Positions 4,550-17,091 of a stretch of DNA of 28,227 nucleotides are shown here, one piece after another. The translations under genes were made by a program, and so were the position numbers. Within the stretch, counting starts at the first letter, position 1. Every line of letters begins with the position of its first letter. This DNA is from a virus (Duplodnaviria; Heunggongvirae; Uroviricota; Caudoviricetes): positions 1 to 28,227 of IMG/VR virus record IMGVR_UViG_3300045988_125232. One strand, written 5' to 3'. The notes below the pieces were generated by a model. It was not told the DNA's origin. It saw nothing but the letters and a program-made list of their open reading frames with translations, and did not search any database.

Positions 4550-5224
4550 TTAGGCTTTGATTTTGTATCTTCTTGGTTTTCCTGAGAAAATCACTGTACC
4601 AATTATAGAGCAATTACCGTTGATCTTAATGTAAGGCTCAGGCCAGTTTGGGTTTAACGCTTTGAGATAACGCTGTGTCCCATCTTCTATCAACCTTTTG
4701 AAGGTGGTTTCACCTGTATCGTGCATCAATGCAATAACGTCGTCACCGTGGCAGGCAGGTACTTCAGGATCGACAAAAATCATGTCTCCCGGGCGGTACT
4801 CATCAATCATTGAATCACCTATCACCCGCAAGATATAAGTCATTTCCCCACAGGGGACAGGGCAGGGATACGTTTCTGCTGTGCTCAAATCAACCTCAGA
4901 ATATCCAACTTCTTTCCATGCTCCGGCCTGTACCCATGATATGACAGGGACTAATGTGATTTGTTTATTAGTGATTGAAACATCAGGTTTTTTTGTGATG
5001 TTCGTTGTCTGGTGTTCTTGATCGAGCCATCCGACAGGCAGGTCGAAACATTTTTCGATGTGTCGTGCCATGCTGTCACCGATATTTTTAGTAGCACCAT
5101 CTCCCATAAACCTGCTGGTCTGGGTTGGCTCGCGATCAATCATAGTGGCAAAGGAAGAATTCCCGCCAACACCATCTCTCAGTTTTCTGGCGTTAGACCG
5201 CCGGATGTCATGGATTGTTTTCAT
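4550..5224 (-). CDS. cI: CI-type prophage repressor (HTH plus S24 LexA-like autopeptidase domain)
   Basis: 224-aa ORF. The C-terminal domain carries the Ser/Lys dyad context (VIGDSM ... FKRL) and its end (LNPNWPEPYIKINGNCSIIGTVI) resembles P22 C2 / lambda CI. Divergently arranged against the cro-like gene. Confidence 0.9.
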   Translation of the reverse strand: MKTIHDIRRSNARKLRDGVGGNSSFATMIDREPTQTSRFMGDGATKNIGDSMARHIEKCFDLPVGWLDQEHQTTNITKKPDVSITNKQITLVPVISWVQAGAWKEVGYSEVDLSTAETYPCPVPCGEMTYILRVIGDSMIDEYRPGDMIFVDPEVPACHGDDVIALMHDTGETTFKRLIEDGTQRYLKALNPNWPEPYIKINGNCSIIGTVIFSGKPRRYKIKA

Positions 5225-5239
5225 AACGAAATTAAAACC

Positions 5240-5311
5240 CTTGTACCGTTAAGGTACAAGTATCTTGAAGGTTCATTTCAATCATGTAATATGTACATCG
5301 GAGGTACATAT
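5240..5311. promoter_or_regulatory. Operator/promoter region between the repressor and cro (three dyad-symmetric sites)
   Basis: Dyads read in sequence: CTTGTACC-N5-GGTACAAG, TTGAA-N7-TTCAA and ATATGTAC-N7-GTACATAT. A TAATAT -10-like hexamer and GGAGGT ribosome-binding site precede the cro ATG. Confidence 0.6.
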
Positions 5312-5314
5312 TGT

Positions 5315-5546: not shown

Positions 5547-6116
5547 ATGAGGCTAATCGTGGGTAAGCATCACTGGAAAATAGAAAAACAGCCTGAGTGG
5601 TACGTGAAAGCTGTCAGAAAAACTATCGCGGCGTTGCCGGGTGGTTACGCTGAAGCGGCTGACTGGCTCGATGTAACAGAAAACGCTTTATTCAACCGCC
5701 TTCGTGCAGATGGCGATCAGATTTTCCCGCTGGGATGGGCAATGGTTTTACAGCGTGCTGGTGGCACTCACTTCATTGCTGATGCTGTGGCGCAGTCTGC
5801 AAATGGCGTCTTTGTGTCTCTTCCTGACGTCGAGGATGTGGACAACGCCGATATTAACCAGCGTCTGCTGGAAGTCATTGAACAGATCGGCAGTTATTCA
5901 AAACAGATTCGTTCAGCAATCGAAGACGGTGTAGTGGAACCGCATGAGAAGACAGCAATTAACGACGAGCTGTATCTCTCAATTTCGAAGCTGCAGGAGC
6001 ATGCAGCACTTGTCTACAAAATTTTTTGCATTTCAGAAAGTAATGACGCCCGCGAGTGTGCAGCTCCGGGCGTCGTGGCGTCGATTGCTTCTGGTTGTGG
6101 AGAAACTAACGCATGA
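5547..6116 (+). CDS. Putative CII-like / YdaT-like early regulatory protein (189 aa)
   Basis: Position immediately downstream of cro, same strand; assignment by synteny only. Confidence 0.5.
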
Positions 6117-6291: not shown

Positions 6292-6471
6292 TTGCGACAA
6301 GTTAACCGCTGGTTCAAAGATCACTACGGAGTACCCGTCAGAGTCATTCGTTGGGAGCCGGAAACACAACGGGTTATCTACCTCCGCGAAGACTATGAGC
6401 ATGAGTGCTTCAGCCCGCTCGAACAGTTTCGTCGTAAATTCAGGGAAATAGAGGTCGGTCATGAGCACTAA
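6292..6471 (+). CDS. Small protein (59 aa, TTG start) translationally coupled to the replication gene
   Basis: AAGGAG ribosome-binding site 8 nt upstream of TTG; its stop overlaps the ATG of the next gene. The product (…[35 protein letters not shown]…) is more protein-like than the serine-rich tail of the overlapping 112-aa ORF. Confidence 0.35.
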
Positions 6472-7402
6472 ATTAACCGGCTATGTATGGGATGGTTGCG
6501 CTGCGTCAGGCATGAAATTATCCAGCGTGGCAATTATGGCCCGCCTGGCTGATTTCAGTAATGACGAAGGTGTGTGCTGGCCATCAATTGAAACCATTGC
6601 CCGTCAGATTGGCGCGGGGATGAGTACCGTCAGAACGGCTATCGCACGGCTGGAAGCAGAAGGCTGGTTAACGCGTAAGGCGCGTCGCCAGGGTAACCGC
6701 AATGCGTCGAATGTTTATCAGCTTAACGTTGCGAAGCTTCAGGCAGCGGCATTTTCTCAACTGTCAGATTCTGACCCGTCAAAATCTGACGCATCAAAAT
6801 CTGACCCGTCAAAATTTGATGCGTCGAAATCTGGCAAAAAAGCGGGTTTTCACCCGTCAGAATCTGGCGGGGATCCGTCAGTAAAATCAAAACATGATCC
6901 GTCAGATAAAAAAACTTCTCGTCCGGACGCTTCGCAACCGGACACGCAGACGGCTGAACAGGAGTTTTTAACTCGCCATCCTGATGCGGTTGTATTCAGC
7001 CCTAAAAAGCGCCAGTGGGGAACGCAGGATGATTTGACCTGCGCACAGTGGCTCTGGAAAAAAATCATCGCCCTGTACGAGCAGGCCGCCGAATGTGACG
7101 GCGAGGTGGTTCGTCCCAAAGAACCGAACTGGACAGCCTGGGCAAACGAAATTCGCCTGATGTGTGTGCAGGATGGTCGTACTCACAAACAAATCTGCGA
7201 GATGTACAGCCGCGTCAGCCGCGATCCGTTCTGGTGCCGTAACGTGCTCAGCCCGTCGAAGCTGCGGGAAAAATGGGATGAGCTTTCCCTGCGCTTATCG
7301 CCGTCCGTCAGCACGTACACCGAAAAACGCGAAGACCCGTACTTCAAAGCCAGTTACGACAACGTGGACTACAGCCAGATCCCGGCAGGATTCAGGGGGT
7401 GA
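6461..7402 (+). CDS. Replication initiator (O-like, N-terminal winged-helix DNA-binding domain)
   Basis: 313-aa ORF with an N-terminal HTH typical of phage/plasmid replication initiators (…WPSIETIARQIGAGMSTVRTAIARLEAEGWL…); a repeat-encoded low-complexity linker (DPSKSDASKSDPSKFDASKS) overlies DNA iterons. Confidence 0.8.
   Translation: MSTKLTGYVWDGCAASGMKLSSVAIMARLADFSNDEGVCWPSIETIARQIGAGMSTVRTAIARLEAEGWLTRKARRQGNRNASNVYQLNVAKLQAAAFSQLSDSDPSKSDASKSDPSKFDASKSGKKAGFHPSESGGDPSVKSKHDPSDKKTSRPDASQPDTQTAEQEFLTRHPDAVVFSPKKRQWGTQDDLTCAQWLWKKIIALYEQAAECDGEVVRPKEPNWTAWANEIRLMCVQDGRTHKQICEMYSRVSRDPFWCRNVLSPSKLREKWDELSLRLSPSVSTYTEKREDPYFKASYDNVDYSQIPAGFRG
6761..6845. repeat. Iteron array inside the replication gene (putative origin)
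   Basis: At least four tandem 15-bp units (TCTGACCCGTCAAAA, TCTGACGCATCAAAA, TCTGACCCGTCAAAA, TTTGATGCGTCGAAA), with further CCGTCAG repeats and A-rich tracts out to about 6905. Confidence 0.6.
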
Positions 7403-7404
7403 TC

Positions 7405-7893
7405 ATGAGTCTTTTGAATGAAGTTCAGAAATACATTGAAGCCCATCCGGGGTGTACTTCCGGAGACATTGCGGATGCTTTTGCAGGTTACTCACGGCAG
7501 CGCGTTCTGCAGTCAGCAAGCAAGTTACGTCAGAGTGGTCGTGTGGCTCACCGTTGTGAAGGGGATACACGCAGACATTTCCCGCGCCTGACTGAGAGAG
7601 CGCAGGAGGCGGAACCGCAACCAGTTCGTGAAACCAGACCTGTGCGCAATTTCTATGTCGGCACTAACGACCCGCGGGAGATTTTGTGCCTGACCCGCCA
7701 GGCGGAAGAACTGGAGTCCAGGGGCTTATACCGTCGTGCTGCAACGGTGTGGATGGCGGCATTCCGTGAAAGCCACTCCCAGCCAGAACGAAACAATTTT
7801 CTGGCGCGTCGTGAGCGGTGCTTACGGAAAAGCAGCAAGCGCGCTGCATCGGGTGAAGAGTGGTATCTGTCAGGGAATTACGTGGGGGCTTAA
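7405..7893 (+). CDS. Regulatory protein with a PerC-like C-terminal domain
   Basis: The C-terminal segment AEELESRGLYRRAATVWMAAF matches the conserved PerC/Pch core as I recall it; the N-terminal 60 aa look like a small HTH. AGGGGG ribosome-binding site 5 nt before the ATG (an alternative GTG start lies at 7399). Confidence 0.6.
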   Translation: MSLLNEVQKYIEAHPGCTSGDIADAFAGYSRQRVLQSASKLRQSGRVAHRCEGDTRRHFPRLTERAQEAEPQPVRETRPVRNFYVGTNDPREILCLTRQAEELESRGLYRRAATVWMAAFRESHSQPERNNFLARRERCLRKSSKRAASGEEWYLSGNYVGA

Positions 7894-8546
7894 TGAGTAA
7901 TAAATATTGCCAGGCGCTGGTGGAACTGCGGAACAAACCAGCCCATGAACTGAAGGAAGTGGGCGATCAGTGGCGCACGCCGGACAACATTTTCTGGGGA
8001 ATTAACACCCTGTTTGGCCCGTTTGTTCTGGATCTGTTCACTGACGGTGATAACGCCAAATGTGCCGCGTATTACACGGCGGAAGACAACGCGCTGGCGC
8101 ATGACTGGTCAGAACGTCTTGCGGAGCTTAAAGGTGCTGCCTTTGGTAATCCCCCATACAGCCGCGCCAGTCAGCATGAGGGGCAATACATCACCGGCAT
8201 GCGTTACATCATGAAGCATGCCAGTGCCATGCGTGATAAAGGCGGGCGCTATGTTTTCCTGATCAAAGCTGCCACCAGCGAAGTGTGGTGGCCGGAAAAT
8301 GCAGATCATATTGCTTTTATTCGCGGGCGTATTGGTTTTGAACTGCCTGTCTGGTTTATCCCGAAAGACGAGAAGCAGGTACCGACAGGCGCTTTCTTCG
8401 CTGGTGCTATTGCTGTTTTCGACAAGACCTGGAAGGGACCGGCAATCAGCTACATCGGGCGCGATGAACTTGAGGCATGTGGTGAGGCCTTTCTGGCGCA
8501 GGTTCGCCAGCAGGCGGAAAAACTGGTCAGGGAGATGGCGGCATGA
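7893..8546 (+). CDS. Phage DNA N6-adenine methyltransferase (Dam-type)
   Basis: Catalytic NPPY motif (FGNPPYS) with size and context typical of lambdoid orphan methyltransferases. ATG overlaps the upstream stop (TAATG); an alternative GTG start lies at 7860. Confidence 0.85.
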   Translation: MSNKYCQALVELRNKPAHELKEVGDQWRTPDNIFWGINTLFGPFVLDLFTDGDNAKCAAYYTAEDNALAHDWSERLAELKGAAFGNPPYSRASQHEGQYITGMRYIMKHASAMRDKGGRYVFLIKAATSEVWWPENADHIAFIRGRIGFELPVWFIPKDEKQVPTGAFFAGAIAVFDKTWKGPAISYIGRDELEACGEAFLAQVRQQAEKLVREMAA

Positions 8547-8869
8547 CGACGTTAACTCAATGCCAGCAGCAGGTGCTGGATATGCTGATTTCTTACCAGA
8601 AAGAGCGTGGCTTTCCGCCAACCAATCAGGAGGTGGCAACCATGCTGGGATATCGTTCAGTGAATGCAGCGGTGGAGCATCTTCGCGCACTGGAGAAAAA
8701 AGGCGTCATCACGATAAAGCGTGGTGTGGCCCGGGGGATAACGCTTCATACCGCGGTGAAGGACGACGACAGCGAGGCGGTCGGGATTATCCGCTCACTG
8801 CTTGCCGGTGAGGAAAACGCCAGGCTGCGTGCAGCCCACTGGTTACATGAGAGGGGTCTGAAAGTATGA
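8543..8869 (+). CDS. LexA-like DNA-binding-domain protein lacking the autopeptidase domain
   Basis: Residues 1-70 align well with the LexA N-terminal winged helix (QQQVLDMLISYQKERGFPPTNQEVATMLGYRSVNAAVEHLRALEKKGVI...RGI-L). There is no S24 domain; a short helical tail follows. Confidence 0.75.
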   Translation: MTTLTQCQQQVLDMLISYQKERGFPPTNQEVATMLGYRSVNAAVEHLRALEKKGVITIKRGVARGITLHTAVKDDDSEAVGIIRSLLAGEENARLRAAHWLHERGLKV

Positions 8870-9255
8870 AGCTGATTCTGCCTTTCCCGCCCAGCGTGAA
8901 CACGTACTGGCGACACCCCAACAAAGGGGCGTTTGCAGGTAAGAGCCTGATAAGCGCGGCGGGGCGCAAATTCCAGAGCGCGGCGTGTGCAGCAATAGTT
9001 GAGCAGTTACGTCGTCTGCCAAAACCAACGTCGGCACCTGCTTCAGTGGAGATCGTGTTGTTTCCTCCGGATAACCGGATCCGCGATCTGGACAACTATA
9101 ACAAGGCGCTGTTTGACGCCCTGACCCACGCGGGTGTGTGGGAAGACGACAGTCAGGTGAAAAGAATGCTGGTGGAGTGGGGACCGGTTATCCCGGAAGG
9201 GAAGGTCGAGATCACTATCAGTAAGTACGAGAAAACGGCGGGTGCAGCCGCCTGA
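8866..9255 (+). CDS. rusA: Holliday-junction resolvase RusA
   Basis: 129-aa ORF with RusA signatures (LPFPPSVNTYWRH ... RDLDNYNKALFDALT...W.DD), at the usual nin-region position. Confidence 0.9.
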   Translation: MKLILPFPPSVNTYWRHPNKGAFAGKSLISAAGRKFQSAACAAIVEQLRRLPKPTSAPASVEIVLFPPDNRIRDLDNYNKALFDALTHAGVWEDDSQVKRMLVEWGPVIPEGKVEITISKYEKTAGAAA

Positions 9256-9274
9256 TTAAGAGGAGAAACGAAGT

Positions 9275-10072
9275 ATGAATAATCTGATGGTCATTGATGG
9301 TATTGAAGTTCGTCGTGATGCTTATGGGCGTTACAGCCTGAACGATCTGCACAGGGCTGCCGGTTCTCTGGATAAGCATAAGCCTGCATTCTGGCTCCGC
9401 AATGAGCAAACTGAGCGTTTAATAAGCGAGTTGCAGATTTGCAACTCGGTCAATATAGAGCCAGTTAACGTTATTCGTGGCGGAAATAACCAGGGGACGT
9501 ATGTCTGCAAAGAACTGGTGTATGCCTATGCAATGTGGATCAGCCCGTCATTCCATCTGAAGGTGATCCGTACTTTCGACATGGTAACCAGCGCACCGGA
9601 AAAATTATCCGGACAGGCTGCTGACAAGATGCAGGCTGGTGTGATTCTGCTGGACTTTATGCGCCGGGAGTTAAATCTGTCTAACTCTTCAGTGCTTGGA
9701 GCCTGTCAGAAACTTCAGGAGGCTGTTGGCTTACCGAATCTGGCACCGCGCTATGCCATTGATGCTCCTGCTGACGCGCCTGATGGCTCAAGCCGCCCCA
9801 CGCTGTCACTGAGTGCACTGCTGAAGCAGTATGGTATCCGCCTTACGGCTAATCAGGCATATCACCAGATGGCGAAGCTGGGGATCGTCGAACAGCGCGA
9901 ACGATACAGCCGTACAGCGATTAACAACATCAAAAAATTCTGGTCGCTGACAGCGAAAGGCTGCATGTTCGGCAAGAATATCACCAGTCCCGCAAATCCG
10001 CGTGAGACGCAGCCGCATTTCTTCGAATCCCGATTCCCTGAGCTGTTAAAGCTGCTCGATACCGTTCATTGA
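9275..10072 (+). CDS. KilA-N domain protein (antirepressor-like, probable KilAC-type C-terminus)
   Basis: N-terminal KilA-N signature (GRYSLNDLHRAAG...KHKP..WLR...GGNNQGTYVCKELVYAYAMWISP.F); strong ribosome-binding site AGAGGAGA. Confidence 0.8.
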   Translation: MNNLMVIDGIEVRRDAYGRYSLNDLHRAAGSLDKHKPAFWLRNEQTERLISELQICNSVNIEPVNVIRGGNNQGTYVCKELVYAYAMWISPSFHLKVIRTFDMVTSAPEKLSGQAADKMQAGVILLDFMRRELNLSNSSVLGACQKLQEAVGLPNLAPRYAIDAPADAPDGSSRPTLSLSALLKQYGIRLTANQAYHQMAKLGIVEQRERYSRTAINNIKKFWSLTAKGCMFGKNITSPANPRETQPHFFESRFPELLKLLDTVH

Positions 10073-10073
10073 G

Positions 10074-11069
10074 GTGACCGTGAGAGCACTACTGACCCCT
10101 GAAATTGCCCCGCGTATGGGGATCGTATTGTTCAGACCAGGTTCAGAGCTGATGCCCCTGTTTATGCAGGGGCGTGTCCTGCTGGAGCCTGAGCCGGAAC
10201 GTTATTCATCTTTCGCCAGTGGTGCTGTTCCGGCGGCATCACAACCGCTGGCGGATGATCCTGACGTTCGGGCCGTGTTCCGCAATGAGGCAGTGATCCG
10301 TCGTGCTGGTGGCGTGGAATGTCTTGAAAGCTGGTTACTTCGTGAAAAAGGCTGCCAGTGGCCTCATTCCGACTGGCACAGCGAGAACATGACAACAATG
10401 CGACACGCGCCGGGCGCAATCCGTCTGTGCTGGCACTGCGATAAACAGCTGCGCGATCAGTTCACGGAACGGCTGGAATCAATGGCAACGGATAACTGTG
10501 CCCGCTGGGTGTTGTCTGTTGTGCGTCGGGATCTCGGTTTTGATGATAGTCACGTTGTGACAATGCCGGAACTGTGCTGGTGGCTGATTCGTAATGACCT
10601 GGCGGATGCCTTACCGGAAAGTGCAGCCCGTAAGGCACTGAGATTACCGAAGCCTGTTGTGCCGTCTGTCACCCGGGAAAGTGACCTTGTGCCTTCGGTT
10701 CCTGCCACCAGCATCATCCAGGATAAGGTGAAAAAGGTGCTGGCGCTGAAAGTGGATCCGGAGTCGCCGGAGTCTTTTATGTTACGCCCAAAACGTCGCC
10801 GCTGGGTTAATGAAAAGTACACACGCTGGGTTAAGACACAGCCGTGTGCATGTTGTGGAAAGCCTGCTGATGATCCCCACCACCTGATAGGCCACGGTCA
10901 GGGGGGAATGGGTACAAAAGCGCATGACCTCTTTGTGTTGCCTTTGTGCAGAAAGCATCACGACGAGCTGCATGCGGATACCGTGGCATTTGAAGAGAAG
11001 TATGGTTCCCAGCTGGAGCTGATATTTCGTTTTATCGATCGTGCGCTGGCAATAGGCGTACTGGCGTAA
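10074..11069 (+). CDS. DUF968-family prophage protein with C-terminal HNH/zinc-finger-like motif (YdfU-like)
   Basis: 331-aa ORF (GTG start) with C-terminal CACCGKP...HHLIGHG...LCRKHHDELH, located immediately upstream of Q as ydfU is in Qin-type prophages. Confidence 0.75.
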   Translation: MTVRALLTPEIAPRMGIVLFRPGSELMPLFMQGRVLLEPEPERYSSFASGAVPAASQPLADDPDVRAVFRNEAVIRRAGGVECLESWLLREKGCQWPHSDWHSENMTTMRHAPGAIRLCWHCDKQLRDQFTERLESMATDNCARWVLSVVRRDLGFDDSHVVTMPELCWWLIRNDLADALPESAARKALRLPKPVVPSVTRESDLVPSVPATSIIQDKVKKVLALKVDPESPESFMLRPKRRRWVNEKYTRWVKTQPCACCGKPADDPHHLIGHGQGGMGTKAHDLFVLPLCRKHHDELHADTVAFEEKYGSQLELIFRFIDRALAIGVLA

Positions 11070-11082
11070 GTGGAGAACGAGC

Positions 11083-11835
11083 ATGAACCTTGAAGCCTTA
11101 CCGAAATATTACTCCCCGAAATCTCCAAAACTGAGCGATGACGCACCGGCGACAGGCTCTGGTGGTTTAACGATTACGGATGTGATGGCTGCGCAGGGGA
11201 TGGTGCAGTCGAAAGCACCGCTTGGGTTTGCCTTATTCCTGGCAAAAGTTGGTGTTCAGGATCCTCAGTTTGCGATTGAAGGTCTGCTCAATTACGCGAT
11301 GGCACTGGATAACCCGACATTGAATAAATTGAGTGAAGAAACCCGGCTACAGATCATTCCTTACCTTGTGAATTTTGCCTTTGCTGATTATTCCAGGTCT
11401 GCGGCAAGTAAGGCTCGCTGTGAGCATTGTGCTGGTACTGGATTTCATAATGTATTGCGCGAGGTGGTGAAACACTCCAGAAGCGGGGAATCTGTTATCA
11501 AGGAAGAGTGGGTGAAGGAACTATGTCAGCATTGTCATGGTAAGGGAGAAGTCAGCACAGCGTGCAGAGGGTGTAAGGGTAAAGGTATTGTCCTGGATGA
11601 AAAAAGGACCCGGCTTCATGGCACGCCTGTTTATAAGATTTGTGGGCGTTGCAATGGAAACCGGTTTAGCCGTTTACCAACTACACTGGCACGACGTCAT
11701 GTCCAGAAGCTGGTTCCAGACCTGACTGATTATCAGTGGTACAAAGGATATGCAGACGTAATTGATAAACTAGTAACAAAGTGCTGGCAGGAAGAAGCAT
11801 ATGCTGAAACGCAATTGAGAAAGGTGACGAGATAA
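11083..11835 (+). CDS. Q: Late-gene antitermination protein Q
   Basis: 250-aa ORF with cysteine clusters (CEHCAGTG, CQHCHGKG, CRGCKGKG, CGRCNG) typical of Q-family zinc-binding antiterminators; followed by a promoter and terminator, then the lysis genes. Confidence 0.8.
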   Translation: MNLEALPKYYSPKSPKLSDDAPATGSGGLTITDVMAAQGMVQSKAPLGFALFLAKVGVQDPQFAIEGLLNYAMALDNPTLNKLSEETRLQIIPYLVNFAFADYSRSAASKARCEHCAGTGFHNVLREVVKHSRSGESVIKEEWVKELCQHCHGKGEVSTACRGCKGKGIVLDEKRTRLHGTPVYKICGRCNGNRFSRLPTTLARRHVQKLVPDLTDYQWYKGYADVIDKLVTKCWQEEAYAETQLRKVTR

Positions 11836-15350: not shown

Positions 15351-17080
15351 GCCGGAAATCTTACCCCAACGTAAATGCTGCAAATCAGTATGCCCGGGAT
15401 GTCGTGCGCGGAAAGATTGTTGCCTGCCAGTTTGTGATTCAGGCCTGCCAGCGCCATCTTGATGACCTGATGGCGGAAAAAAGTAAGTCGTTTCGTTACC
15501 GCTTCGACAAGGACCTGGCTGAACGGGCCGCGAAATTTATTCAGCTGTTGCCGCACACCAAGGGGGAGTGGGCATTCAAACGGATGCCCATCACGCTGGA
15601 GCCGTGGCAGCTATTTGTGATCTGCTGTGCGTTTGGCTGGGTCAATAAAGGCACCCGGTTGCGCCGCTTCCGGGAGGTGTACACCGAAATCCCCCGTAAG
15701 AACGGCAAATCAGCAATCTCTGCCGGTGTTGCCCTGTATTGTTTTGCCTGTGATAACGAGTTTGGCGCGGAAGTGTATTCCGGTGCCACGACAGAGAAAC
15801 AGGCGTGGGAAGTCTTTCGCCCGGCGCGACTGATGTGTAAACGCACACCCATGCTGACGGAAGCGTTCGGGATTGAGGTTAACGCCTCAAACATGAACCG
15901 TCCGGAGGATGGCGCGCGGTTTGAACCGCTGATCGGCAACCCAGGTGATGGTTCATCACCCCACTGTGCCGTGGTTGATGAATATCACGAGCATGCCACC
16001 GATGCGCTTTATACCACAATGCTTACCGGGATGGGGGCGCGACGTCAGCCACTGATGTGGGCCATCACCACCGCCGGGTACAACATTGAGGGGCCGTGCT
16101 ACGACAAGCGGCGGGAAGTCATCGAGATGCTCAACGGCTCGGTGCCTAACGATGAACTGTTCGGGATCATCTATACCGTTGATGAAGGTGACGACTGGAC
16201 CGACCCGCAGGTGCTGGAAAAAGCCAATCCAAATATTGGCGTGTCGGTTTATCGCGAATTTTTGTTAAGTCAGCAGCAGCGTGCGAAAAATAACGCCCGT
16301 CTGGCAAACGTCTTTAAAACAAAACACCTCAATATCTGGGTGTCGGCGCGTTCGGCGTATTTCAACCTGGTGAGCTGGCAGAGCTGCGAGGATAAATCAC
16401 TGACTCTTGAGCAGTTCGAGGGGCAGCCGTGCATTCTGGCCTTTGACCTGGCGCGTAAGCTGGATATGAACAGCATGGCGCGACTTTATACCCGCGAGAT
16501 TGACGGTAAAACGCATTACTACAGTGTGGCCCCGCGTTTCTGGGTACCGTATGACACGGTGTACAGCGTCGAGAAAAATGAAGATCGCCGGACAGCCGAA
16601 CGCTTTCAGAAATGGGTGGAAATGGGCGTTCTGACCGTTACCGATGGTGCAGAGGTGGATTATCGCTACATCCTCGAAGAGGCCAAAGCGGCGAACAAAA
16701 TCAGCCCGGTCAGTGAGTCACCCATCGACCCTTTCGGAGCGACCGGGCTGTCACATGACCTTGCTGATGAAGACCTGAATCCCGTTACTATCGTCCAGAA
16801 CTTCGCCAATATGTCCGACCCGATGAAAGAGCTGGAGGCAGCGATTGAATCGGGACGCTTTCATCATGACGGCAATCCCATCATGACCTGGTGTATCGGC
16901 AATGTGGTCGGCAAAACCATTCCGGGTAACGATGATTTAGTGAAGCCCGTCAAAGAGCAGGCGGAAAACAAAATCGATGGTGCAGTTGCGCTGATTATGG
17001 CGGTTGGCAGAGCCATGCTGTACGAGAAAGAAGACACGCTGTCTGACCACATTGAGTCCTATGGGATCCGCTCGCTTTAA
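15347..17080 (+). CDS. Terminase large subunit
   Basis: 577 aa with a P-loop-like ATPase segment ([10 protein letters not shown]) and C-terminal nuclease-like region; overlaps the small subunit stop. Confidence 0.95.
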
Positions 17081-17091
17081 CTGAGGTAATT

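Follow-up and report, generated by a model that had tools for sequence, protein, structure and literature searches.

What might a prophage gain from the DNA-reading part of LexA without the part through which LexA cleaves itself? The question is raised by a gene in a 28,227-nucleotide stretch of DNA from a virus of the Caudoviricetes (IMG/VR record IMGVR_UViG_3300045988_125232, positions 1 to 28,227; this whole stretch is referred to as the window). The gene, called here the LexA-head gene, occupies 8543–8869 on the plus strand, stop codon included; in the list of open reading frames (ORFs) it starts with ATG and encodes 108 amino acids (aa). An earlier note on this DNA had described the product as a LexA DNA-binding-domain paralogue lacking the autocleavage domain, which could either occupy SOS boxes regardless of DNA damage or act as a dominant-negative partner of the host LexA. 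It is very likely, in our judgement, that the protein is a sequence-specific DNA-binding regulator that is derived from LexA and is unable to autocleave. As to its role, the reading that we favour, with a probability of roughly 0.4, is that of a RecA-insensitive, LexA-type repressor that is dimerised by a hairpin and produced from the early lytic operon, and that would hold SOS-box-like palindromes closed while the host LexA is being cleaved.

A LexA-type head without the S24 domain

When the protein was searched against Pfam, PF01726 (LexA_DNA_bind) was the sole family found, with E = 2.9e-19 for residues 1–65 against positions 1–65 of the 65-position profile. The score of 69 bits exceeded the gathering threshold of 23.7, while the remaining winged-helix families of Pfam had E values of 0.0015 or more and all stayed under their cutoffs. 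Among PDB sequences, the top match was the N-terminal domain of E. coli LexA (1lea; E = 7e-16, residues 2–69). The head was aligned to LexA by hhalign with a probability of 99.7%.

For the structure, an AlphaFold (AF2) model derived from a 19-sequence family alignment was used instead of the single-sequence model. The former had a mean pLDDT (predicted local distance difference test) of 85 and a pTM (predicted template modelling score) of 0.58; the pLDDT of the latter was 61. In this model, residues 1–69 (8543–8749, plus strand) formed a LexA-type winged helix-turn-helix (HTH), with helices at residues 6–22, 28–35 and 40–52 and a beta wing at 56–68, at a pLDDT of about 90. By Foldseek, the model superposed on DNA-bound LexA (3jso) with a root-mean-square deviation (rmsd) of 1.0 Å over 68 columns and 50% identity. 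The top non-LexA winged helix in the structure search was PefI, with E = 0.011 and 20% identity, and the LexA-domain proteins of tectiviruses appeared only as weak matches at ranks 15–16 (E about 4e-3). The earlier note had allowed that the similarity might be confined to a generic winged helix. Since the fit to 3jso far exceeds that to PefI, the similarity is specific to LexA.

No match to the S24 peptidase family (PF00717) was found in the 108-aa protein by Pfam; the chain stops at residue 108, and the RusA gene follows. Because the S24 module with its Ser119 and Lys156 is absent, the protein cannot autocleave, in agreement with what had been proposed. Against the lexA equivalog of NCBIfam (TIGR00498) the protein scored 70.8 bits, under the cutoff of 110.95, and matched positions 1–91 of the 203-position profile. 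The protein is not a LexA, since it lacks the S24 domain and falls short of the equivalog cutoff. It is a PF01726-domain protein and a member of PHROG 362 ("transcriptional repressor", about 106 aa), whose profile was matched with E = 1.4e-59 (residues 1–108 against positions 1–106 of 106). The window protein is in fact a representative of this PHROG and RefSeq family, with no structural difference from it.

DNA-contact residues

The DNA contacts of E. coli LexA are made by Ser39, Asn41, Ala42, Glu44 and Glu45 (PMC3091678). The recognition helix of the window protein, VNAAVEHLRALEK (residues 40–52; 8660–8698, plus strand), was aligned to LexA S39-P-N41-A42-A-E44-E45, and the LexA numbering was found to hold. 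Four of the five contact residues are retained, namely S39 (codon at 8657–8659, plus strand), which is just ahead of the recognition helix, and N41, A42 and E45; the fifth position is V44. Across 170 family members, S39 was present in every one, N41 in 168, A42 in 154 and E45 in 126 (74%, with Asp in another 13%). The wing residues were also nearly constant (R64 in 169 and G65 in 168 of the 170). Glu was found at position 44 in none of the 170 members, where A, V, T, L or F occurred instead. As judged from this alignment, the head would be very LexA-like with one systematic difference, that at position 44.

Positions 44 and 45 read LL, TL or LT in some Klebsiella-type members that still stand behind canonical LexA boxes. 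In a sample of 21 full-length LexA-sized proteins, S39, N41 and A42 were general, and 44 and 45 were the variable positions.

The comparison with E. coli LexA (TIGR00498; 1LEA, 1JHH, 3JSO) may be put together as follows. The two proteins have in common a winged helix that is about 50% identical and superposes within 1.0 Å, the same numbering of the recognition helix, the residues S39, N41, A42, E45 and R64/G65, and an alignment that runs through the linker up to an Ala-Gly motif. They differ in that the prophage protein is without the S24 peptidase/dimerisation domain, has Val at position 44, ends in a hairpin of its own and is phage-borne in an early lytic operon.

The C-terminal tail

The head is followed by an acidic, flexible linker at residues 70–74 (TAVKD; 8750–8764, plus strand). 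The pLDDT was below 50 at residues 71–75, and the linker varies in length and sequence across the family. Residues 75–103 (8765–8851, plus strand) form a family-specific helical hairpin with helices at 75–88 and 93–103, modelled at a pLDDT of about 90. In 30 representatives sharing less than 80% identity with one another, the positions kept in the tail were A79, V/L80, L/I82-83, R84, L86, L/V87, A93, R94, R96, A97, F/W/Y100, L101 and G105, of which A97 was invariant (30/30). No match was obtained when the tail alone was searched against PDB sequences.

The hairpin probably serves as an oligomerisation module by pairing with another copy or with a partner protein, because the model has broad hydrophobic stripes on it, a flexible tether in front of it, and a pTM of 0.58 despite the high pLDDT. 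A lone hairpin of 30 residues would be expected to need such a partner. In having an N-terminal winged helix and a C-terminal helical oligomerisation element, the protein resembles regulators of the BlaI/MecI, MarR and DtxR types. The full-length Foldseek matches to these were weak (2g9w, MepR and MntR; E about 0.02) with an rmsd of 9–13 Å, so that the likeness is one of generic fold only.

Both HMMER and hhalign carried the alignment beyond the winged helix to LexA residues 76–87, placing A88-G89-E-E of the hairpin on A84-G85-E-P of LexA. AGE(E/P) is the most frequent motif at this place in the E. coli-type subgroup. Ala-Gly itself was found in less than half of the family representatives, and is nearly lost from a subfamily of 125–140 aa, which has NDEP, HNEP or AEEP. 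The AF2 model placed the A88-G89 segment in a confident helix and not in an extended strand or loop. We read A88-G89 as a probable vestige: the family would have arisen from a full-length LexA cut just past its cleavage region, which was then rebuilt as helix 75–88 of the hairpin. We also considered a functional cleavage site at this Ala-Gly, and gave it less weight because the motif is not conserved.

Distribution and conservation of the family

Relatives were gathered by searching exhaustively with a profile and by a further homology search. Full-length relatives with 39–90% identity were found in Escherichia, Shigella, Salmonella, Citrobacter, Hafnia, Cronobacter, Kosakonia, Klebsiella, Raoultella and Enterobacter. 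Common to all of them are the LexA head, a short variable linker and a conserved tail of ~30 residues, and the window protein likewise has the conserved hairpin motif after the variable linker. The architecture of 106–135 aa is retained in at least nine genera. Between genera, the nonsynonymous divergence (dN) was 0.24–0.66 and the synonymous divergence (dS) was saturated, with their ratio, omega, at 0.13–0.40 where it could be computed. Given these values, purifying selection acts on the gene, which is no fragment in decay. A pseudogene or truncation artefact was ruled out on the same values together with the architecture kept across genera. The word paralogue, used in the earlier note, understates what is a conserved, widespread prophage family with a hairpin of its own, not a bare truncation.

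Among complete E. coli genomes the gene was present in 2233 of 5426, always between a phage N6-adenine methyltransferase gene and RusA. These copies are labelled "LexA family transcriptional regulator" (WP_000210164 and relatives). A gene 100% identical to that of the window occurs in Stx2a (Shiga toxin 2a) phages and O157:H7 chromosomes, and copies with 97–98% identity occur in Stx2c phages, SfII, SfIV and prophages of the ECOR strains. The counterpart in SfV is orf42, annotated "unknown". In 15 Stx phages the family was catalogued as pham 237, "LexA family transcriptional regulator pfam01726" (PMC8136144). The labels 'repressor' and 'regulator' rest on homology. A full-text search of the literature gave catalogue mentions only and no experimental study of the family. 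What is already known is the gene as an annotated object, and not its function; as it is annotated in thousands of genomes, its novelty is lower than the earlier note implied. From the sequences, what appears to be new is a conserved prophage family of the Enterobacteriaceae with its own C-terminal helical hairpin of ~30 residues, together with the pattern of contact residues (E44 never kept), the apparently vestigial Ala-Gly alignment, and a sister subfamily in operons with a LexA box and dinI or recA.

The searches also brought up proteins of 140–350 aa with two separate LexA-head matches (P0127, P0129, P0130, P0134, P0136, P0139, P0141, P0142, P0144 and others). Each may hold two LexA DNA-binding domains in tandem in one chain, by which a palindrome could also be read with no S24 dimer.

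LexA boxes in the sister subfamily and in close relatives

The long members of the family (125–140 aa, with an N-terminal extension) constitute the sister subfamily. Eight of its loci were studied, from Klebsiella, Raoultella, Enterobacter and one metagenome (L006–L008, L013 and L015–L018). In all eight, the LexA-head gene is part of a cluster of co-directional genes that begins with a single strong LexA box (21–27 bits), about 600–1500 bp upstream of the LexA-head gene. The promoter was read in two of the eight loci. In L006 (Klebsiella) the box, TACTGTTTATTTATACAGTA, overlaps the −10 hexamer of a sigma-70 promoter (TTGAAC-N17-TATACT), and in L013 (Enterobacter) it follows closely on a putative −10.

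Six of the clusters (L006–L008, L015, L017 and L018) open with dinI, and that of L016 with a recA homologue of 369 aa; the L013 cluster has neither and begins with a phrog_1813 ORF. The order after the first gene is phrog_1813 ORF, LexA-head gene, phrog_1212 ORF, RusA where present, DUF968 and the antiterminator gene Q, so that Q would also fall downstream of a LexA-regulated promoter. A homologue of DNA polymerase III theta was noticed just upstream in L017 and L018.

DinI and RecA are core modulators of the SOS response. Judged by its sequence context, the operon of the sister subfamily is apparently conserved and SOS-controlled, and in that lineage the LexA-head gene itself is very probably SOS-induced. 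A sister protein that bound the box would close its own promoter. These operons of the relatives, with LexA box, dinI and recA, would tie the family to SOS and fit the idea, put forward in the earlier note, that the protein occupies SOS boxes regardless of damage.

Prophages related to that of the window also have strong LexA boxes: SfV has one, and the Stx2a prophage whose LexA-head gene is identical to that of the window has two. In the Stx2a prophage of O157:H7 PV15-279 (L001; NZ_AP018488.1), a perfect 20-bp LexA box of 27 bits, TACTGTTTTTATATACAGTA, is located at 7546–7565. It is inside the coding sequence of a cI-like XRE/S24 repressor (7082–7774, minus strand), in the linker between HTH and S24. 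The second box, at 17072–17091 in the same prophage (23.7 bits) and at 10171–10190 in SfV (L014, U82619.2; 22.3 bits), covers the initial codons of a gene that lies in the late region, between Q and lysis/stx, and is called 'DNA-methyltransferase' in the former and orf48 in the latter. Neither box was found in the window prophage, from which the late-region gene is also missing. Thus, if the window protein acts on SOS boxes, they are elsewhere in the cell, because the prophage of the window has none.

Search for operators in the window

The window was scanned for SOS boxes in three ways, and the absence of CTGT-N8-ACAG reported in the earlier note was borne out. The exact motif occurred 0 times in the 28 kb. 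With one mismatch allowed there were 10 sites, compared to 8.7 expected, which is chance level. A position weight matrix (PWM), built from E. coli SOS boxes, with 13.3 bits for the weakest training site, gave a top site of 10.8 bits in the window, below both that value and the mean shuffle maximum of 11.2. A canonical SOS box in the window was accordingly rejected, all three scans being at or below chance.

The shorter pattern CTG-N10-CAG was enriched in the window, with 18 sites against 6.7 expected from dinucleotide shuffles (for example at 9677–9692 and 9703–9718 in the KilA-N gene). None of the 18 has an AT-rich, SOS-like core, and most are within coding sequence. The excess is probably due to the usage of CTG and CAG codons, which dinucleotide shuffles do not preserve.

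A private operator was also sought. A palindrome scan of the intergenic regions of the window, and a scan of eight family-bearing loci for palindromes in common, gave only CI/Cro operators, terminators and homologous coding DNA, and this candidate was dropped. No palindrome overlapping the −35 of a late promoter was found in the interval from Q to lysis or elsewhere. Palindromes of the form TGTAC-N7-GTACA were observed at 5240–5260 (CTTGTACCGTTAAGGTACAAG) and 5288–5312 (AATATGTACATCGGAGGTACATATT), in the space that separates the rightward genes from the CI-type repressor. Presumably these are CI/Cro operators, and the same form was seen in Citrobacter and Cronobacter relatives with the same type of repressor.

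Position in the early-right operon

The window is a lambdoid prophage from E. coli or Shigella and belongs to the SfV/SfII type. Long stretches of it share 96–97% identity with SfV, SfI, SfII and related E. coli myoviruses. On the minus strand it has an integrase (457–1620) and a CI-type S24 repressor (4550–5224); a CII-like gene (5547–6116) and an HTH_36 replication protein (6461–7402) come after these. A repetitive, low-complexity stretch, SDSDPSKSDASKSDPSKFDASKSG, was noted in the replication-type protein at about 6740–6900. The DNA repeats under it could be origin iterons within an initiator gene, the arrangement known from lambda O.

The LexA-head gene is part of a nin-type module of the early-right operon (7399–11835, plus strand), whose co-directional genes were assigned by Pfam matches. 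In order, these are a PerC-like gene (7399–7893), a Dam-type methyltransferase (about 7894–8546), the LexA-head gene, RusA (8866–9255), a KilA-N protein (9275–10072), DUF968/HNH (10074–11069) and the antiterminator Q (11083–11835), after which the lysis and morphogenesis genes follow. A Shine-Dalgarno sequence, GGGAGA, is found 7 nt 5′ of the LexA-head ATG. As read from the sequence, the methyltransferase stop overlaps the LexA-head start in ATGA (8543–8546, plus strand), and the LexA-head stop overlaps the rusA start in another ATGA (8866–8869, plus strand), both as in translational coupling. With TAATG at 7891–7896, at the junction of the PerC-like and Dam genes, four genes are chained. Since their stop and start codons overlap in a chain, the PerC-like, Dam, LexA-head and RusA genes are suggested to be one translationally coupled unit.

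By its position, the LexA-head gene would be a translationally coupled, delayed-early member, of nin type, of the rightward operon. The gene order and the overlapping codons suggest that synthesis of the protein starts upon induction or infection, and that the resting lysogen does not make it. A promoter of its own for expression in the lysogen was considered, as a dam promoter is annotated within orf40 of SfV. It was set aside, since that promoter has weak hexamers and a −35 that has not been kept in the window.

The gene order of the module recurs in the O157:H7 Stx2a prophage, in SfV and in prophages of Citrobacter, Salmonella, Kosakonia and Cronobacter, and the location upstream of DUF968 and Q was found in the window and 12 other contexts. 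In the short subfamily (≤118 aa), to which the window gene belongs, the order is PerC, methyltransferase, LexA-head, RusA, in some cases KilA-N or an ANT antirepressor-like gene, DUF968 and Q. The adjacent methyltransferase comes from three unrelated families in different phages (PF05869, PF02086 and PF00145). In a Salmonella prophage that carries family member P0345 (L010), a gene for a pertussis-toxin S1-like ADP-ribosyltransferase (8373–9098) was observed directly 3′ of Q, at the position that stx has in the Stx phages.

Proposed mechanism and alternatives

Our favoured reading would work as follows. The protein would be a descendant of LexA in which the winged-helix reading head was kept, and the self-cleaving S24 dimerisation domain was exchanged for a hairpin of ~30 residues. 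Its gene, transcribed in the early-right (PR) operon and translationally coupled between methyltransferase and RusA, would be expressed after induction or infection. Two subunits would be joined by the hairpin, so that two LexA-type heads could read a palindrome. The preferred site would be an SOS-box-like CTG...CAG palindrome, because S39, N41, A42, E45 and R64/G65 are retained; the change of E44 to V may shift or tighten the specificity. Without the catalytic Ser/Lys domain the protein would be blind to RecA*, and it could hold or re-impose repression at SOS promoters during the destruction of LexA. Candidate targets are the SOS genes of the host, as well as genes under LexA control in other elements or in prophages that share the cell. 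For members of the sister subfamily, a further candidate is their own operon with LexA box and dinI, which would give negative feedback. The constancy of the head across mosaic phages of many genera, the lack of a shared cis palindrome and the linkage to dinI, recA and LexA boxes point to this reading. A bolder version of it is rather doubtful: a RecA-proof 'LexA surrogate' of lambdoid prophages that dimerises via a hairpin evolved from the cleavage segment of LexA, re-closes SOS operators at induction, and is paired with a dinI/recA feedback operon in the subfamily of Klebsiella, Raoultella and Enterobacter. In function, a small prophage protein that could damp SOS would be a parallel to DinI and other prophage SOS modulators. 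There is no relationship to DinI in sequence or fold, and DinI acts on RecA filaments, not on DNA.

Several points weigh against the favoured reading. The retained residues do not prove CTGT specificity, as 39, 41 and 42 were general and 44 and 45 variable in the LexA-sized sample, and the specificity need not equal that of LexA, since no member has Glu at position 44. About one member in four has lost E45, and some of these stand behind canonical boxes. As the 28 kb hold no LexA box or other candidate operator, any target has to be outside the window. The genes that are linked to dinI, recA and LexA boxes belong to the sister subfamily and not to that of the window gene, and dimerisation through the hairpin is inferred from a single-chain model. 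In addition, the only characterised analogue, gp6 of GIL01, acts as an activator, and its palindrome is not that of LexA (PMC6182141). A protein of the gp6 kind is suggested rather by the lack of a box in the window, by a position 44 that has systematically lost Glu, and by a position 45 that varies in some members behind canonical boxes.

This alternative, a phage-specific transcription factor that binds a private phage or host operator and times delayed-early or late expression with no direct action on SOS boxes, is the strongest of the rivals, and only somewhat less probable than the favoured reading. GIL01 is a temperate, SOS-inducible tectivirus of a Gram-positive host (Bacillus) that uses the host LexA as its repressor, and gp6 is made early in its lytic programme; gp6 is a truncated LexA homologue, essentially a bare winged helix with 44% identity to the head of the host LexA, and it binds GaCACAC GTGTGaC at −43.5 to activate the late promoter P3 (PMC6182141). 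It is the only characterised truncated LexA homologue encoded by a phage. The window protein is like it in being a phage LexA DNA-binding domain without the protease, at about 50% identity to host LexA in the head, and the location of its gene upstream of Q in a delayed-early operon would suit such a role. Set beside the published description of gp6, the window family differs in its conserved hairpin of ~30 residues, in a head closer to the LexA of its host, in a prophage that has its own CI-type S24 repressor, in the Gram-negative, lambdoid setting, and in the SOS-operon context of its sister subfamily, which itself argues for SOS boxes as targets. No palindrome common to the family-bearing prophages was found beyond CI operators and homologous coding DNA; the module moves among phages unlike one another in immunity, Q and late regions, and this speaks against a cis target fixed in the phage; and the reading-head residues are constant across genera even though overall identity is about 40%.

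The remaining alternatives fare worse. The protein might be a DNA-targeting accessory of its neighbours (the orphan methyltransferase, RusA and DUF968/HNH) rather than a transcription factor, for example in C-protein-like control or in the recruitment of RusA or HNH. Its gene follows directly on methyltransferases of three unrelated families and precedes RusA with overlapping codons, and DUF968 is there in every context. Such a role is nonetheless improbable: the methyltransferase is absent from the Citrobacter, Klebsiella, Raoultella and Enterobacter contexts and RusA from those of Klebsiella and Raoultella, the gene order of nin regions is conserved for positional reasons, and the sole domain found by Pfam is a winged helix of the transcription-factor type. 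Far less probable is a decoy or pseudo-substrate, with a tail that is cleaved in trans, or that docks into the active site of UmuD, of the prophage CI or of the host LexA, and so modulates RecA*-dependent cleavage. The alignment of A88-G89-E-E with the LexA cleavage motif and the prevalence of AGE(E/P) in the E. coli-type subgroup would speak for it, and Kim and Little reportedly described in 1993 an intermolecular cleavage by the C-terminal domain of LexA. The scarcity of Ala-Gly, above all in the 125–140-aa subfamily, and the confident helix given to this segment by AF2 argue against it, and the strong conservation of the DNA-reading residues would be needless for a decoy. Least credible of all are dominant-negative mixed dimers with the host LexA, the second role suggested in the earlier note. 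In the LexA crystal structures 1JHH and 3JSO, the subunits of the dimer meet through the C-terminal S24 domain. Because this domain is missing from the window protein, which shares only the N-terminal domain with LexA and whose hairpin has no detectable similarity to S24, a heterodimer is unlikely.

Significance

The SOS response governs prophage induction, the release of Shiga toxin, mutagenesis and the spread of mobile elements. To specialists, a LexA-domain regulator in a prophage will be unsurprising until its target is shown. A private regulator of the gp6 kind would be a second case, and a Gram-negative one, of phages turning LexA into a transcription factor of their own, a useful but modest addition. 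If instead the favoured reading is true, a phage LexA head beyond the control of RecA would free part of the SOS regulon from its dependence on DNA damage wherever the prophage is active. The carriers include Stx2a and Stx2c phages and the serotype-converting phages of Shigella, and an effect at SOS boxes would matter for induction in pathogens with several prophages. Should the bolder version prove true, phages would rewrite the SOS programme of the host and silence LexA-controlled rivals, such as the antirepressors of other prophages and colicins. Given that about 40% of complete E. coli genomes carry the gene, this would then be an unrecognised layer in SOS control, in the competition between prophages and in Shiga-toxin induction.

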